From Bacteroidales bacterium (lineage in GTDB: Bacteria > Bacteroidota > Bacteroidia > Bacteroidales > PXBB01), in the NCBI GenBank assembly GCA_003565735.1, contig PXBB01000002.1, positions 4,477 through 68,476 of the forward strand: a DNA stretch of 64,000 nt, given 5' to 3'. The notes beneath the pieces are model-generated. The model was not told the DNA's origin. It worked only from the letters and a program-made list of their open reading frames with translations, and ran no database searches. The position numbers and the translations under genes were made by a program. Below, piece by piece: positions 40,354-48,600 of the stretch (the first letter of the stretch is position 1; each line of letters starts with the position of its first letter).

Positions 40354-41706
40354 CTACACAAGTCCTTGTGCAATCATAGCATCGGCTACTTTTATAAAGC
40401 CTCCAATGTTAGCACCTTTAACATAGTTAATGGTACCATCATCATTTTTACCATATTTTACACATGTTTTATGAATATTAATCATAATTTCGTGTAAGCG
40501 GCCATCAACCTCTTCCCTACCCCATGGCAAACGCATGGAGTTTTGTGACATTTCGAGTCCTGATGTTGCTACACCACCGGCATTAGCAGCTTTACCGGGG
40601 CCATAAAGGACCTTCTTTTCGATAAAATATTCCACTGCTTCGGGAGTAGATGGCATATTGGCTCCTTCAGAAATAACAAAGCATCCATTGTCGATAAGCG
40701 TTTTAGCATCATCAAGGTTCAATTCATTTTCTGTAGCACTAGGCAAAGCGACATCACATTTAACACCCCATGGTGTTTTACCTTCTACATACTCGCAGCC
40801 ATATTTATCAGCATATTCTTTGATACGTCCACGCTTAACATTCTTAAGCCACATAACATACTCAAGTTTTTCCTTGTCTATACCTGCTGGGTCATGAATA
40901 TAACCACTAGAATCAGAAAGTGTAACAACCTTACCACCCAATTCATTTACTTTTTCAGTAGCAAATTGTGCCACATTACCTGAACCGGAAACAACACATA
41001 TTTTATTTTTAAAGCTATCATTACGCGTTTTGAGCATTTCGTCAGCAAAATAAACCTGACCGTAGCCGGTAGCCTCAGGACGAATTAAACTGCCACCCCA
41101 GTCTATACCTTTACCTGTCAATACGCCGGTAAATTCATTTTTAATTCTTTTATATTGCCCGAACATAAAACCAATTTCTCTACCACCAACGCCAATATCG
41201 CCGGCTGGAACATCTGTATCAGGGCCTATATGTCTGAAAAGCTCAGTCATAAAACTTTGACAAAACTTCATAACTTCATTGTCGGACTTACCTTTTGGGT
41301 CAAAGTCAGAACCACCCTTACCACCACCCAATGGCAGAGAAGTCAAACTGTTTTTAAAGACCTGTTCAAAAGCTAAAAATTTTAATATGCCTAAATTCAC
41401 TGTAGGGTGAAAACGTAACCCACCTTTGTAAGGGCCAATAGCACTATTCATTTCTATACGAAAACCTCTGTTTACTTGTGTGACACCATTATCATCTAAC
41501 CATGGCACACGGAATATAATAACTCTTTCAGGCTCTGTCATTCTTTCGAGAATTCGAGCATCCTTGTATTTAGGATTTTCTTCAACAAACTCAATAAGCG
41601 ATTCAACAACTTCCTCAACGGCCTGATGGAATTCTTTTTCTCCTTGGTTTTTGGCCTTTACCTGGGCCATAAACTGATCAACTTTTTCTTTTAAATGTGC
41701 ATTCAT
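40354..41706 (-). CDS. gdhA: Glutamate dehydrogenase (NAD(P)-dependent, GdhA type)
   Basis: [61 protein letters not shown]. Confidence 0.97.
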
Positions 41707-42023
41707 TTTTTAATTTTTTAATTATTTTATTAGTACAAATCGAACTTAATATTTAAATGCAATAATAAACGTTTTTTTTAATTTTAAATAACTTTTGTAT
41801 TATATTTTTTACACTTAATCTTATTTTACAGTTTTTACGTATAAACATATAAATATTTTTCTTATTTTAAATAGGTATTTTTCTTATTCTTAATTACGCT
41901 AATCACTTATCATAAGCTATTAAAAAAAATATTTACATTTACATTTTGTTAAACACATAGTGTAGCAACATGAAACAAAAGCTTATTAGAATTTAAATTT
42001 AAAAAATATAACCTACTATACAA

Positions 42024-45539: not shown

Positions 45540-45609
45540 TCCGGGCATATTAGTAAAAATGATTTCAGGTAAACAGCTTTTAAATATAATTATACTTTAA
45601 TAAATATCA

Positions 45610-48600
45610 ATGAAATACATAGAAAACATCAACGAATTTCAATTTACTGAAACGGCATTTAAGAAATTAATGCAAAAGCGTATAAGAAATATTCTTATTA
45701 TTTGCAGTAAGTACGATTATTTTATGCTTGAGGAAGACGGGCGTATTGATGAGCAGATTTTTAACGAATACGTTTCACTCAATTTACGTTATCCACCTAC
45801 ATTTATACAAGCCTCAAACTGGGAAGAAGCCTCAAAGCTGCTCGAAAATTCGCAGATAGACCTTATAATCAACATGCTAAGCACGGGCAACATTGATCCT
45901 TTTGATTTGTCACGAAAAATTAAAAACTACTATCCCAACAAACCTATTGTGGTTCTCACTCCATTTTCAAGAGAAGTTCTTATGCGCCTTCACCGCGAGG
46001 ATTTAAGCGCCATTGATTATGTGTTCTCCTGGCTGGGCAATGCGGATATTTTGTTGGCTATCATAAAACTTATTGAGGATAAAATGAACGCCCCCAATGA
46101 TATTGAAGAAATTGGTGTTCAGAGCATTATACTGGTTGAAGACAATATCAGGTTTTACTCAAGCTACTTGCCAATCATATACAAAATTCTTTTCCGTCAG
46201 TCTAAAGCGCTTATGACAGAAGGTCTCAACGAGCACCAAAAAATGCTGCGCATGCGTGGCAGGCCCAAAATATTGCTGGCTACCAATTATGAAATGGCTA
46301 CTGCTTTTTACGAAAAATACAAACACAATTTACTGGGTGTCATTTCTGATATTAGTTACAAGCGCGAAGGCTCCCTTGATTCGAAAGCAGGCATCAGTTT
46401 GTGCGAAAAAATTAAAAATGAAGACGACCGTATTACCTTCCTCCTCCAATCCTCTGACAGTTCTTTTGAGGAAGTTGCACTCAAAATGAAAGTAGGGTTT
46501 ATTCATAAACACTCTAAAACGCTGTTGCAGGATTTAAAGCAATTTATAATAGAATACTTTTCTTTTGGGGATTTTGTTTTTCGTACCCCCGACACACTTC
46601 AAGAAATTACCAGGGCAGCCGACTTACATTCACTACAAAATAAAATTTTCACTATCCCTGATGAATCTTTAGACTATCACATTAAGCGTAATGATTTTTC
46701 GAAATGGCTTACAGCTCGTGCTTTATTCCCATTAGCAGAGCTCTTCAAGCCGGTCTCTCACGAAGCATTTCAAAACTTACAGGAAGTACGTGAATATTTG
46801 TTCGATGCCATAGAACACTTTAGAATTACCAAAGGCCGTGGTGTTATTGGCAAATTTGAAAAATCAAAATTTAATAAATACATCCTTTTTTCTCGTATAG
46901 GCGAAGGCTCTATTGGAGGCAAAGCAAGAGGACTTGCTTTCATGAACAGCCTCATTAAAGATAATAAACTGTACAATAAATACGAAAACACGATTATTAC
47001 CATCCCTAAAACTGTTGTGCTGAGTACGGATGTGTTTGATGAGTTTATGGAAGCCAACAATCTGTATAGCATAGCCCTATCTGACTTAAGCGATGAAGAA
47101 ATATTACAGCACTTTATTAATGCGCGTTTACCATTTCGCATTCATGAAGATTTGTTATCCTATTTGTCCGTTGTCAAAAACCCTATAGCTGTACGCTCCT
47201 CAAGCCTCCTTGAAGACTCACACTATCAACCATTTGCCGGTGTCTATTCAACCTATATGATACCAAAGCTAAACGACGACATCATACGTATGGTCGAAAT
47301 GCTATCACAAGCAATTAAAGCCGTATATGCTTCGGTATTTTACAAGTCGAGCAAATCTTATATGGCTGCAACACATAACTTAATAGATGAGGAAAAAATG
47401 TCTATTGTGTTACAAGAAGTTTGTGGTAATCAATATGGCAACATATTTTATCCAACAATTTCTGGTGTTGCACGTTCAGTAAACTTTTATCCTATTGGGC
47501 CCGAGTCGCCCGAAGATGGCATAGCCAATATTGCCTATGGTTTAGGAAAAGTTATTGTAGAAGGTGGTGTGTGTATGCGCTTTAGCCCTAAATATCCCCG
47601 AAATGTTTTGCAACTGTCATCCCCCGAATATGCCCTGCGCGATACACAAAAAAAATTTTTGGCGCTCAACCTTGACCCTGATAATTTTAAACCATCGAAA
47701 GAGGAAGATATCAACTTGATTGAATCGCGTATCAAAGAAGCTGAAAAACATGCTTCCTTCAAGTATGTGGCATCAACCTACGACTATCATTCAAACATGG
47801 TGCGCGACGGCATAGCAGAAGGGGGCAAAAAAATTGTAACATTCTCTAACATTTTAAACCACAACCTGATGCCCATGGCAGAAATTATTGACAACTTTCT
47901 GCAAATCAGCAAAAAAGAAATGAATAATCATGTTGAAATAGAGTTTGCTGTTAACTTAGACACACCAAAAGGTAAACCATACATTTTTAACTTTTTGCAA
48001 ATCAGGCCTATAGTTCAAAACTTTGAAATTGCTAACATTAACATTGATAAAATCAATCAAAATGAAACAATAGTATTTTCAGAAGCGGCATTAGGCAATG
48101 GTGTTATTGAGGGCTTAAGGGATATTGTCTATATAAAACCGGAAACATTTAACCCTTCTAATACAATTGAGATGGCAGATGCTGTTAACAGTATTAATGA
48201 ATCTTTTCTTGATAAAAACAGCAACTACATCCTTATTGGGCCAGGGCGTTGGGGTTCGAGCGACCCTTGGTTAGGAATACCTGTTAAATGGGCACAAATT
48301 TCTGCCGCCAGAGTTATTATTGAAGCCGGTCTCGAAAATTACCGTATTGACCCCAGCCAAGGCACGCATTTTTTTCAAAACCTAACCTCTTTCCGTGTGG
48401 GTTATTTTACTATTAACCCATTCAACAACGACGGCTTTTATGACCTTGATTATCTTAAGGGCTTAGAAACTGTCAGCGAAAATAAATATCTTCGACATGT
48501 ACGCACACCGAAAGCGGTTTCTGTCAGAATTGACGGTAAAAATAATATTGGTGTTATTTACAAACCGGAATACTCAAAAAAAAGCAAATGCAAGAATTAA
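45610..48600 (+). CDS. PEP/pyruvate-binding (PPDK_N-like) domain protein with receiver-like domains, paralog B
   Basis: IILVEDN, VISD; GGKARGL, AVRSSSLLED...FAG, EIEFAV, LQIRP; GPGRWG...GTHFFQN. Stop codon overlaps the convergent bioF stop (TTAA). Confidence 0.87.
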   Translation: MKYIENINEFQFTETAFKKLMQKRIRNILIICSKYDYFMLEEDGRIDEQIFNEYVSLNLRYPPTFIQASNWEEASKLLENSQIDLIINMLSTGNIDPFDLSRKIKNYYPNKPIVVLTPFSREVLMRLHREDLSAIDYVFSWLGNADILLAIIKLIEDKMNAPNDIEEIGVQSIILVEDNIRFYSSYLPIIYKILFRQSKALMTEGLNEHQKMLRMRGRPKILLATNYEMATAFYEKYKHNLLGVISDISYKREGSLDSKAGISLCEKIKNEDDRITFLLQSSDSSFEEVALKMKVGFIHKHSKTLLQDLKQFIIEYFSFGDFVFRTPDTLQEITRAADLHSLQNKIFTIPDESLDYHIKRNDFSKWLTARALFPLAELFKPVSHEAFQNLQEVREYLFDAIEHFRITKGRGVIGKFEKSKFNKYILFSRIGEGSIGGKARGLAFMNSLIKDNKLYNKYENTIITIPKTVVLSTDVFDEFMEANNLYSIALSDLSDEEILQHFINARLPFRIHEDLLSYLSVVKNPIAVRSSSLLEDSHYQPFAGVYSTYMIPKLNDDIIRMVEMLSQAIKAVYASVFYKSSKSYMAATHNLIDEEKMSIVLQEVCGNQYGNIFYPTISGVARSVNFYPIGPESPEDGIANIAYGLGKVIVEGGVCMRFSPKYPRNVLQLSSPEYALRDTQKKFLALNLDPDNFKPSKEEDINLIESRIKEAEKHASFKYVASTYDYHSNMVRDGIAEGGKKIVTFSNILNHNLMPMAEIIDNFLQISKKEMNNHVEIEFAVNLDTPKGKPYIFNFLQIRPIVQNFEIANINIDKINQNETIVFSEAALGNGVIEGLRDIVYIKPETFNPSNTIEMADAVNSINESFLDKNSNYILIGPGRWGSSDPWLGIPVKWAQISAARVIIEAGLENYRIDPSQGTHFFQNLTSFRVGYFTINPFNNDGFYDLDYLKGLETVSENKYLRHVRTPKAVSVRIDGKNNIGVIYKPEYSKKSKCKN

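Follow-up and report, generated by a model that had tools for sequence, protein, structure and literature searches.

Genes A and B, which lie side by side and diverge from a glutamate dehydrogenase (GDH) gene in the window (the whole 64,000-nucleotide stretch of a Bacteroidales contig that was analysed), belong to a family whose members we consider rather likely to use ATP under signal control and to act as regulators or partners of GDH. Both proteins combine receiver-fold domains, a dikinase-type ATP-grasp and a family-specific C-terminal domain; the ATP/Mg-binding and receiver phospho-acceptor residues are conserved, a PEP/pyruvate domain is absent, and the family genes adjoin gdh, co-occur with it and have duplicated together with it as units. 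Tentatively, and with somewhat less than even confidence, we propose that A and B represent a large uncharacterised family of response-regulator type, derived from dikinases, whose core is functionally coupled to the cognate GDH. Because relatives throughout the phylum adjoin gdh and were co-duplicated with it, A and B probably control ammonium assimilation. In a library clustered at 50%, 5131 representatives match the family at E ≤ 0.001, so A and B are not a chance feature; no characterised member was found in the literature searched.

An ORF check reproduced the open reading frames, their coordinates, the divergence from gdhA and the 70 bp gap between the co-oriented A and B that a preliminary description of this locus had given, and every motif quoted there was found: ILLVED/IILVED, VISD, YH..RN.FS.W..AR, SLGSHFFHN/SQGTHFFQN, and LQIKP in A against LQIRP in B (Table 1). 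The gdhA product scores 769.9 bits with the NADP-specific GDH model NF006929 (cut-off 536). A and B are paralogues with 39% identity over 970 residues, A having about 200 additional N-terminal residues. A sigma-70 scan of the gdhA–A intergenic region gave 34 sites against 32.6 expected, which is chance level, Bacteroidota promoter types being outside the scan. In RNA run X1, contigs that match gdhA, A and B exactly give a weak sign of expression.

Table 1. Features of the gdhA–A–B locus (positions in the window; residues in the respective protein).
Feature	Coordinates	Strand	Description
gdhA	40354..41706	-	NADP-type glutamate dehydrogenase, 450 aa; ELFV_dehydrog and ELFV_dehydrog_N
Divergent intergenic region	41707..42023	.	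317 bp, AT-rich, common to gdhA and gene A
Gene A	42024..45539	+	1171 aa; GAF-like N-terminus, pseudo-receiver, receiver, linker, PPDK_N ATP-grasp (LQIKP), C-terminal His domain (GSHFFHN)
A extra N-terminal domain, residues 1-195	42024..42608	+	probably GAF-like, lead only
A ATP-grasp, about residues 610-1000	43851..45023	+	PPDK_N E 1.5e-41, residues 622-1000
A C-terminal domain, about residues 1001-1171	45024..45536	+	GPGRWGT, SLGSHFFHN
Gene B	45610..48600	+	996 aa; universal form of the family
B pseudo-receiver (REC1), residues 25-168	45682..46113	+	from AF2 secondary structure and alignment column counts
B receiver (REC2), residues 170-316	46117..46557	+	E177, D178, D247 (VISD), S281, K300
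B linker domain, residues 320-410	46567..46839	+	YH..RN.FS.W..AR; weakly DUF5752-like
B ATP-grasp, residues 425-801	46882..48012	+	PPDK_N (PF01326) E 1.6e-40; GGK438, R529-S-S, E535-D536, E776/E778, Q797, R799
B C-terminal domain, residues 815-990	48052..48579	+	unclassified; AF2 pLDDT 90.7

The N-terminal half of B contains two receiver-fold domains. The preliminary description was right in counting two receiver-like segments per protein, but its markers, ILLVED and VISD, both belong to a single receiver, REC2, in which they form strands 1 and 3, the other domain being a pseudo-receiver upstream. REC1 has the receiver fold without the acidic pair and without an Asp at the acceptor position (88), and Trp141 replaces the Lys. 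REC2 has the fold together with the acidic pair, phospho-acceptor Asp, Ser/Thr and Lys, conserved in an alignment of 66 diverse full-length relatives (32–81% identity) at E177 (65/66), D178 (55/66), D247 (59/66), S281 (62/66) and K300 (63/66); the Pfam Response_reg model reaches 24.3 bits, below its cut-off of 30.2. Since REC2 keeps this complete phospho-acceptor set, the signal control suggested earlier is plausible. The linker that follows consists of two strands and helices in the AF2 model and matches DUF5752 with E = 2.8e-4, under the Pfam cut-off. The extra domain of A (residues 1–195) gave no Pfam match; its nearest named Atlas clusters are GAF families (scores 0.84–0.87), and as a lead only it is probably GAF-like.

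The AF2 model of full-length B is confident (pLDDT 88.8, pTM 0.82). A Foldseek search with it gave the rifampin phosphotransferase RPH (PDB code 5hv1; E = 3.5e-13) and HpeI (PDB code 9goj; E = 2.4e-10) as the best fold matches, and further matches to PEP synthase (PEPS; PDB code 2ols), PPDK (PDB code 1kbl) and the tandem-receiver regulator PleD (PDB code 1w25; E = 5e-7). Within the ATP-grasp, GGK438, R529, E535/D536, E778 and Q797 are invariant among the 66 relatives, and R799 is kept in at least 90% of them. The difference between LQIKP and LQIRP, noted earlier for the two proteins, turned out to be a clade feature: the R799 position is K in 12 of the 13 A-type orthologues and Q in the remaining one (LQPQP), and LQxRP is found in 79 of 82 B-type ORFs, the three exceptions including the N-terminal piece of a broken gene that lacks the region (L056) and a variant (L058).

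Automatic annotation treats these proteins as ordinary PEP synthases or PPDKs, under source names such as 'phosphoenolpyruvate synthase' and 'PEP/pyruvate-binding domain-containing protein', and the PPDK_N match, nucleotide/Mg residues included, is indeed strong. Beyond the ATP-grasp, however, both proteins continue for only about 180 residues, and a Pfam search of A and B revealed no PEP-utilizers domain (the PF00391 swivel) and no TIM-barrel domain. The NCBIfam equivalog models for PEPS and PPDK all score far below their cut-offs (for example, TIGR01418 with 43.9 against 739.75), and canonical PEP-utilizers proteins, among them a normal PPDK-like gene product, are encoded elsewhere in the genome. 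Given the missing PEP/pyruvate TIM barrel and this normal PPDK-like gene, A and B are therefore not PEP synthases, as the preliminary description had argued; we rejected the assignment, which we regard as extremely improbable, and a family of thousands is almost certainly misnamed.

The C-terminal domain of B has the invariant residues G-P-G-R880-W-G, D885, E905, G918, H920-F-F and N924. The conserved His to which the preliminary description drew attention is invariant in all 85 C-terminal domains compared and at least 90% conserved in the 66 full-length relatives; in the AF2 model it opens a helix (919–927) that is preceded by a strand and a loop. Searches with this domain gave no Pfam match at E ≤ 10, PF00391 included, no GG-x-T-S-H motif and no match to PDB sequences. 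A fold search of the PDB with Foldseek returned nothing at E ≤ 0.001 (best E = 0.022), PPDK chains appearing at E = 0.09–0.2 with TM scores of 0.35–0.38, none of them significant, and hhalign against 18 PEP-utilizers domains from relatives gave probabilities below 1%. As to the His-swivel fold raised earlier, the modelled architecture is compatible with a phosphohistidine swivel, but neither fold nor profile comparison gave a significant match.

The tie to glutamate and nitrogen metabolism proved stronger than could be known from the window alone, with gdh adjacency found throughout the phylum. Of 80 related loci, the nearer relatives of the window, 27 have a GdhA-type gene no more than 10 kb away, many flanks ending at contig ends; no other neighbour cluster is as frequent as GDH, which occurs in 25 loci, the second most frequent occurring in 13. 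At the 10 kb distance the figure is 15 of 20 for loci from other families, which were chosen blind to gene context. In an evenly drawn sample of 201 genomes of the phylum, a GdhA-type gene is present in all 35 family-positive genomes and in 31 of the 166 family-negative ones; as read from coordinates, it lies within 10 kb of the family gene in 29 of the 35 and not within that distance in 6, adjacency and co-occurrence counts among related genomes being non-independent observations. GDH does not need the family, since those 31 genomes have a GdhA-type gene without it. In family f44, 10 of 13 genomes have the enzyme and these same 10 have a GdhA-type gene, and in four genomes all six GdhA-type genes are within gdh–enzyme clusters. 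Where the two genes are less than 600 bp apart (50 pairs), gdh is upstream on the same strand in 22, downstream on the same strand in 20 and divergent in 8, with no convergent pair. Most relatives have a single copy, the A+B pair being confined to 13 of the 80 loci. Short forms of about 585 residues, comprising only the ATP-grasp and C-terminal domain, also exist and adjoin a GDH homologue in three loci.

Fourteen gdh–enzyme cassettes fall into the same 6/8 split in the enzyme tree (support 1.0) and the GDH tree (0.997), which indicates that the gdh–enzyme pair was duplicated as a unit; three genomes hold one cassette from each clade. Comparison of 45 family-linked with 20 unlinked GDHs revealed no discriminating residue. 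Other recurrent neighbours are 2-oxoacid:ferredoxin oxidoreductase genes (13 of the 80 loci, directly upstream in 10). A glutamate racemase-like gene also occurs among the neighbours.

As a mechanism, the pseudo-receiver and the phosphorylatable receiver may gate the PEP-synthase/PPDK-type ATP-grasp, which would work with the family-specific C-terminal domain. A histidine kinase would phosphorylate Asp247 of REC2, and the GAF-like domain of A might provide an additional ligand input. Receiver input would then switch on the ATP-grasp, and His920, at the N-terminus of its helix, would be phosphorylated or pyrophosphorylated as in dikinases. The cognate GDH might then receive the phosphoryl group or be bound by the loaded enzyme, with the outcome that ammonium assimilation would be tuned to nitrogen, 2-oxoglutarate and redox supply. 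Specific phosphotransfer from His920 to GDH is a doubtful element of this scheme. Its boldest form, a receiver-gated 'GDH kinase' that would charge a new kind of phosphohistidine domain from ATP and phosphorylate the GDH paralogue cognate to it, is likewise one to which we give little credence.

The proteins might instead be small-molecule dikinases or kinases that phosphorylate a metabolite of the glutamate/2-oxoglutarate node, the C-terminal domain supplying both the His and a substrate pocket and GDH being a pathway neighbour rather than the target. The closest structures, RPH and HpeI, are small-molecule dikinases, and the metabolic neighbours (GDH, 2-oxoacid:ferredoxin oxidoreductase and the glutamate racemase-like gene) suit this reading. 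So do the many invariant polar and aromatic residues of the C-terminal domain: R880, W881, D885, W894, E905 and N924 exceed the needs of a simple phospho-carrier and could form a small-molecule site. We nevertheless consider it unlikely, as there is no separate substrate-binding domain like that of RPH or HpeH or the TIM barrel of PEPS, it is not obvious why a metabolite enzyme should co-duplicate and stay paired with each gdh paralogue, and the two receiver-fold domains, joined in A by the GAF-like domain, look regulatory.

A regulatory role need not involve phosphotransfer. Pseudo-receivers commonly work via protein contacts, and the family might be an ATP- or ligand-sensing scaffold, a nucleotide-binding energy sensor that controls GDH or gdh expression by binding, with A as a further degenerate copy, in keeping with the replacement of R799 in the A-type orthologues. 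That the ATP/Mg-binding residues of dikinases are all invariant in 66 diverse relatives would be unexpected for a mere binding module, and we hold this explanation to be quite improbable. We think no better of a non-canonical phosphorelay, in which the ATP-grasp and His domain would replace a histidine kinase and phosphorylate the Asp of their own REC2 or another regulator, the output being protein–protein control. Such a relay would fit the combination of a canonical receiver with a conserved His domain in one polypeptide, the lack of a histidine kinase gene on the window's contig and the case of VadK, to which its authors ascribe the function of a histidine kinase (PMC13400623). Yet response regulators usually have just this order, with the receiver at the N-terminus and the enzyme at the C-terminus, and the genome has ten HisKA matches, none on this contig, whose kinases could serve. 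Moreover, the receiver-less short forms keep the GDH neighbourhood, which argues that the core works without a receiver. On this evidence a GDH-directed regulator or partner remains our preferred explanation.

Family carriers include gut Bacteroides, Prevotella and Parabacteroides as well as marine Flavobacteriales, and many Bacteroidota, family carriers among them, assimilate ammonium mainly through GDH. Post-translational control of nitrogen assimilation is poorly understood in Bacteroidota, and the phylum is not known to have nitrogen control of the GlnD/GlnE/NtrBC type. A family tied 1:1 to gdh genes offers a testable handle on this control; it would also widen the range of outputs of two-component signalling by a new type, and its new C-terminal domain may carry or use a phosphoryl group. 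If the GDH-kinase proposal were true, the family would supply the post-translational device for nitrogen control that is missing in Bacteroidota and could account for the reversible in vivo inactivation that GDH of Bacteroides fragilis reportedly undergoes, on which a literature search found nothing.

Among known systems, RPH (PDB codes 5hv1 and 5fbs) and HpeHI are the most similar in structure, through their PPDK_N-type ATP-grasp. Both combine the ATP-grasp with a His-bearing domain, which either comes after it or serves as its partner; HpeHI is described as a two-component dikinase (PMC12167813). In contrast, A and B lack a rifampin- or substrate-binding domain (NF041857 scores 22.4 against a cut-off of 999), their C-terminal domain has the conserved His but is not recognisably the swivel domain of these enzymes, two N-terminal receiver-fold domains are added, and the genomic partner is gdh, whereas RPH and HpeHI belong to resistance or catabolic settings. 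PEP synthase and PPDK share with A and B an ATP-grasp with conserved Lys, Arg, Glu and Gln, followed by a domain with a conserved His at a helix N-terminus, but differ in having PF00391, GG-x-T-S-H and the PEP/pyruvate TIM barrel. The nearest functional analogy for the core of A and B and for the short forms, likened by description, may be VadK (Rv1127c), which is also dikinase-derived without a PEP/pyruvate domain: its report describes a PPDK truncated to ATP-grasp and His domain, with autophosphorylation at His422 and interactions with metabolic enzymes (PMC13400623). In that report the VadK His domain is described by overlay on PPDK, whereas that of A and B is unclassified; VadK has no receiver domains and has methylcitrate-cycle enzymes, not GDH, as partners. 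PleD and other tandem-receiver regulators resemble A and B in that the enzyme domain is preceded by a pseudo- or adaptor receiver and by a receiver that can be phosphorylated; in A and B the pseudo-receiver comes first, and the output is an ATP-grasp with a new domain instead of GGDEF.

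Linkage to glutamate dehydrogenase (GDH) genes is the main result of the present analysis. In the window, genes A and B, neighbouring paralogs whose products combine receivers, a PPDK_N ATP-grasp and a C-terminal histidine-bearing domain, lie 70 bp apart in the same orientation and are divergent from gdhA, from which A is separated by 317 bp. The gdhA product is clearly an NADP-type GDH, scoring 769.9 bits with NF006929 (cut-off 536). A and B share 39% identity over 970 residues, the N-terminus of A being longer by about 200 residues, and all of the motifs quoted in the preliminary description are found in their sequences. 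They are the only copies of the family in their own genome, which carries a second GdhA-type gene (61% identical) on another contig.

Coordinates of the genes in the window and of the parts of protein B
Feature	Position	Strand	Length	Source
gdhA	40354-41706	-	450 aa	
Gene A	42024-45539	+	1171 aa	
Gene B	45610-48600	+	996 aa	
First receiver-fold domain	B residues 25-168			AF2 model
Second receiver (REC2)	B residues 170-316			AF2 model
Small strand-and-helix linker with YH..RN.FS.W..AR	B residues 320-410			AF2 model
ATP-grasp	B residues 425-801			AF2 model
C-terminal domain	B residues 815-990			AF2 model

Exact-match contigs from an RNA library (run X1) lie over gdhA, A and B; they are short, so that uncovered stretches carry no meaning, and are a weak sign of expression, DNA carry-over being possible. 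A scan restricted to terminators and to promoters of the σ70 type, which is distinct from Bacteroidota promoter types, found sites no more often than expected by chance. Convergent with B on its 3' side are a class I/II aminotransferase gene and a radical-SAM/BATS gene (48597-50738, minus strand), BioF-like and BioB-like by domain content; the stop of the aminotransferase gene overlaps the last codons of B (48597-48600). Elsewhere, the window holds type IX secretion genes and cargoes (174-2927, 2992-3942, 38000-40219 and 51052-53442), comprising a DUF11-repeat protein with a CHU_C signal, PorP/SprF, an S8 subtilase with Por_Secre_tail and an fn3/Cleaved_Adhesin protein with Por_Secre_tail. Three minus-strand open reading frames matched none of the Pfam families at the thresholds applied (18457-21273, 938 aa; 12918-14090, 390 aa; 36629-37474, 281 aa).

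The family has at least 7996 matches in the 90% library, with source names such as 'PEP/pyruvate-binding domain-containing protein', 'phosphoenolpyruvate synthase' and 'CheY-like', and 5131 representatives at 50% identity (1206 at E ≤ 1e-30). At least 595 species genomes carry a relative; the 80 loci kept from these belong mostly to Bacteroidota, among them Bacteroides, Prevotella, Parabacteroides, Paludibacter, Lutibacter and Gillisia. Gillisia limnaea DSM 15749 and Lutibacter species (loci L052, L037 and L032) are examples of carriers that are non-pathogenic and can be cultivated. When 201 genomes were drawn evenly from the phylum, the family was present (E ≤ 1e-50) in 35 of them and in 30 of 110 genera, and receiver-less forms of ∼585 aa also occur. 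The A+B pair is the minority state (13 of 80 loci). A-type orthologues carry LQ[IV]KP in 12 of 13 cases and GSHFFHN always, where the region is present; the B-type has LQxRP and G[ST]HFFxN. Some copies in other genomes appear to be broken: gdh lies in two frames at locus L005 (4547-5892) and in L119, and the enzyme gene is split into two ORFs at L056 (4826-7828) and in L119 (broken regions 11001-12366 and 12475-15403). Either assembly errors or pseudogenes could account for this.

Within the flank that could be read at each locus (at most 10 kb, and frequently truncated by a contig end), a GdhA-type gene is present in 27 of the 80 loci, a count which, like the other linkage counts, comes from related, non-independent genomes and is not a probability. 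GDH is also the commonest neighbour cluster (25 loci, the next having 13). As a rough scale, with two gdh copies in a 3.5 Mb genome, a gene chosen at random would have one of them within 10 kb in about 1% of cases. When 20 regions from 20 other genomes were picked by family, their context not being known beforehand, 15 had a GdhA-type gene within 10 kb, directly adjacent in 14; five of the regions contain gdh-enzyme-gdh-enzyme-distant GDH arrays and three short forms adjoin a GDH homologue of 34-36% identity. The closing third GDH-family gene in the arrays of loci L107-L111 and L119 is distant (28-31% identical to GdhA), and the receiver-less short forms also adjoin another PPDK_N protein, which is more distant (27-29%).

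Across the 201-genome sample, a GdhA-type gene (E ≤ 1e-120) occurs in 35 of 35 family-positive genomes versus 31 of 166 negative ones; within one taxonomic family (f44), enzyme and GdhA-type gene are both found in the same 10 of 13 genomes. The two lie within 10 kb of each other in 29 of the 35 positive genomes (coordinates compared by eye), the exceptions being G020, G196, G204, G168, G077 and G073, and in four genomes checked completely all six GdhA-type genes are in such clusters. Of 50 adjacent pairs with less than 600 bp between the genes, 22 have gdh upstream and 20 have it downstream on the strand of the enzyme gene; eight are divergent, as in the window, and none is convergent. Trees were built from 14 cassettes, each an upstream gdh with its enzyme gene, which come from 11 genomes and represent at least five families. 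The enzyme and GDH trees show an identical 6-versus-8 split (SH-like support 1.0 and 0.997), and in each of the three genomes that carry two such cassettes, the two fall on opposite sides of the split; the cassette was thus duplicated as one unit and its pairing was kept afterwards. The possible tie to glutamate and nitrogen metabolism raised in the preliminary description, which called for a neighbourhood survey, is supported by adjacency and co-occurrence across the phylum sample and by co-duplication of the cassettes.

No GDH position separates 45 linked from 20 unlinked sequences (≥85% in one set and ≤15% in the other). A complex prediction for GdhA (residues 10-450) and B (428-985) with alignments as input gave a score of 0.08 (mark 0.32), which weighs neither way on binding. 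In nearer relatives of the window, genes for a two-subunit 2-oxoacid:ferredoxin oxidoreductase (POR/POR_N and TPP_enzyme_C), which we infer to be the 2-oxoglutarate enzyme, are found in 13 of 80 loci, 10 of which have them directly upstream; 11 loci have an Asp/Glu racemase-family gene.

In Pfam, both proteins match the PPDK_N ATP-grasp strongly (A 622-1000 and B 434-814, E about 1e-41), and match Response_reg and DUF5752 only below the cut-offs. The AlphaFold2 model of full-length B (66 relatives as input; pLDDT 88.8, pTM 0.82) consists of five parts. Its best PDB matches are rifampin phosphotransferase (PDB code 5hv1, E 3.5e-13), HpeI (9goj, 2.4e-10), PEP synthase (2ols) and PPDK (1kbl); the N-terminal half best matches the tandem-receiver regulator PleD (5e-7). 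Compared by sequence with PDB chains, B gave nothing below E 0.08, and no match within the C-terminal domain. The contention that A and B are not PEP synthases stands, as Pfam finds neither a PEP-utilizers domain nor a TIM barrel in them. Equivalog models for PEP synthase and PPDK give 14-52 bits where the cut-offs are 456-1063, and that identity was rejected. Canonical PEP-utilizers proteins are found elsewhere in the same genome (a PPDK-sized frame of 932 aa and a frame of 1371 aa). An open frame of ∼1360-1380 aa with PEP-utilizers (PF00391), distinct from the PPDK-sized gene (∼910-930 aa), is conserved (G000:C48:28481-28681, locus L084 on a contig of the window's own genome; relatives L099 and L101-L104).

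Column counts over 66 relatives distinguish the two receivers. The first has Ser-Ser at the acidic-pair site, Thr, Ala or Val at acceptor position 88 and Trp141 in place of Lys, and is a pseudo-receiver. In REC2 the phospho-acceptor set is retained (E177 in 65, D178 in 55, D247 in 59, S281 in 62 and K300 in 63 of the 66). Two receiver-like segments had been noted earlier; two receiver folds are indeed modelled, and with the receivers so told apart the ILLVED and VISD segments are both assigned to REC2, as its strands 1 and 3. No HisKA match was found on the contig that contains the window. The ATP-grasp looks competent, with GGK438, R529-S-S, E535/D536, E778 and Q797 invariant and R799 at least 90% conserved in the same relatives. 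The extra N-terminus of A has no meaningful Pfam match at E ≤ 10; among named Atlas clusters, those closest to it carry GAF families (scores 0.84-0.87), making a GAF-like character only a lead.

The isolated C-terminal domains of A and B have no meaningful Pfam match even at E ≤ 10. Modelled alone on 85 sequences (pLDDT 90.7), the domain gave no Foldseek match in the PDB at E ≤ 0.001. The weak matches are headed by RraA-like 3k4i (E 0.022) and include MccF/LdcA, the ZNRF3 PA domain, RraA, aconitase X, Cpn60 and PPDK chains (E 0.09-0.2, TM 0.35-0.38); we take all of these to be 'swivelling β/β/α' folds in SCOP, the fold class of phosphohistidine domains. The histidine singled out in the preliminary description is invariant (85 of 85 sequences) and in the models of B starts a helix after a strand and loop, a position that the catalytic histidine of PPDK also has. 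An hhalign comparison of the C-terminal profile (A2, with the matching columns of A1) against 18 PEP-utilizers domains from relatives gave a probability below 1%, which is not significant. A diverged phosphohistidine domain is thus no more than compatible with the data. Other invariant features, namely the G-P-G-R880-W-G loop, D885, W894, E905 and N924, exceed the needs of a bare carrier. Among the best 120 of 6030 matches in shorter proteins, all fragments of the same family or PF01326 carriers, the domain has no other protein context and occurs only with the family's ATP-grasp; Atlas look-alikes (scores up to 0.88) are only unnamed or PPDK_N-bearing fragments.

The family thus brings together a receiver whose phospho-acceptor site and an ATP-grasp whose catalytic residues are, by residue conservation, intact, and a gdh pairing that is conserved and inherited as a unit. 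In the mechanism that we propose, the ATP-grasp would be gated by phosphorylation of the receiver and would load His920, and the phospho-enzyme would then bind, or modify, its own cognate GDH. Duplication as a unit with retained pairing is predicted by a cognate protein pair and is not required by a shared metabolite. Alternatively, the family may be a small-molecule dikinase, or may act as a self-contained His-to-Asp relay or as a nucleotide-sensing scaffold.

Literature searches, mostly outside subscription journals, found no published study of the family and nothing on post-translational control of GDH in Bacteroides, including reversible inactivation in B. fragilis. What sets the family apart is a response-regulator layout whose output derives from a dikinase, together with a C-terminal domain and a genomic partner that are both new. 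Work on HpeHI shows that the ATP-grasp and the histidine-bearing part can be separate modules (PMC12167813). VadK, a dikinase core that lacks the PEP/pyruvate domain, is described as a regulator of metabolic enzymes (PMC13400623) and provides a precedent for such a role of a core of the A/B type.
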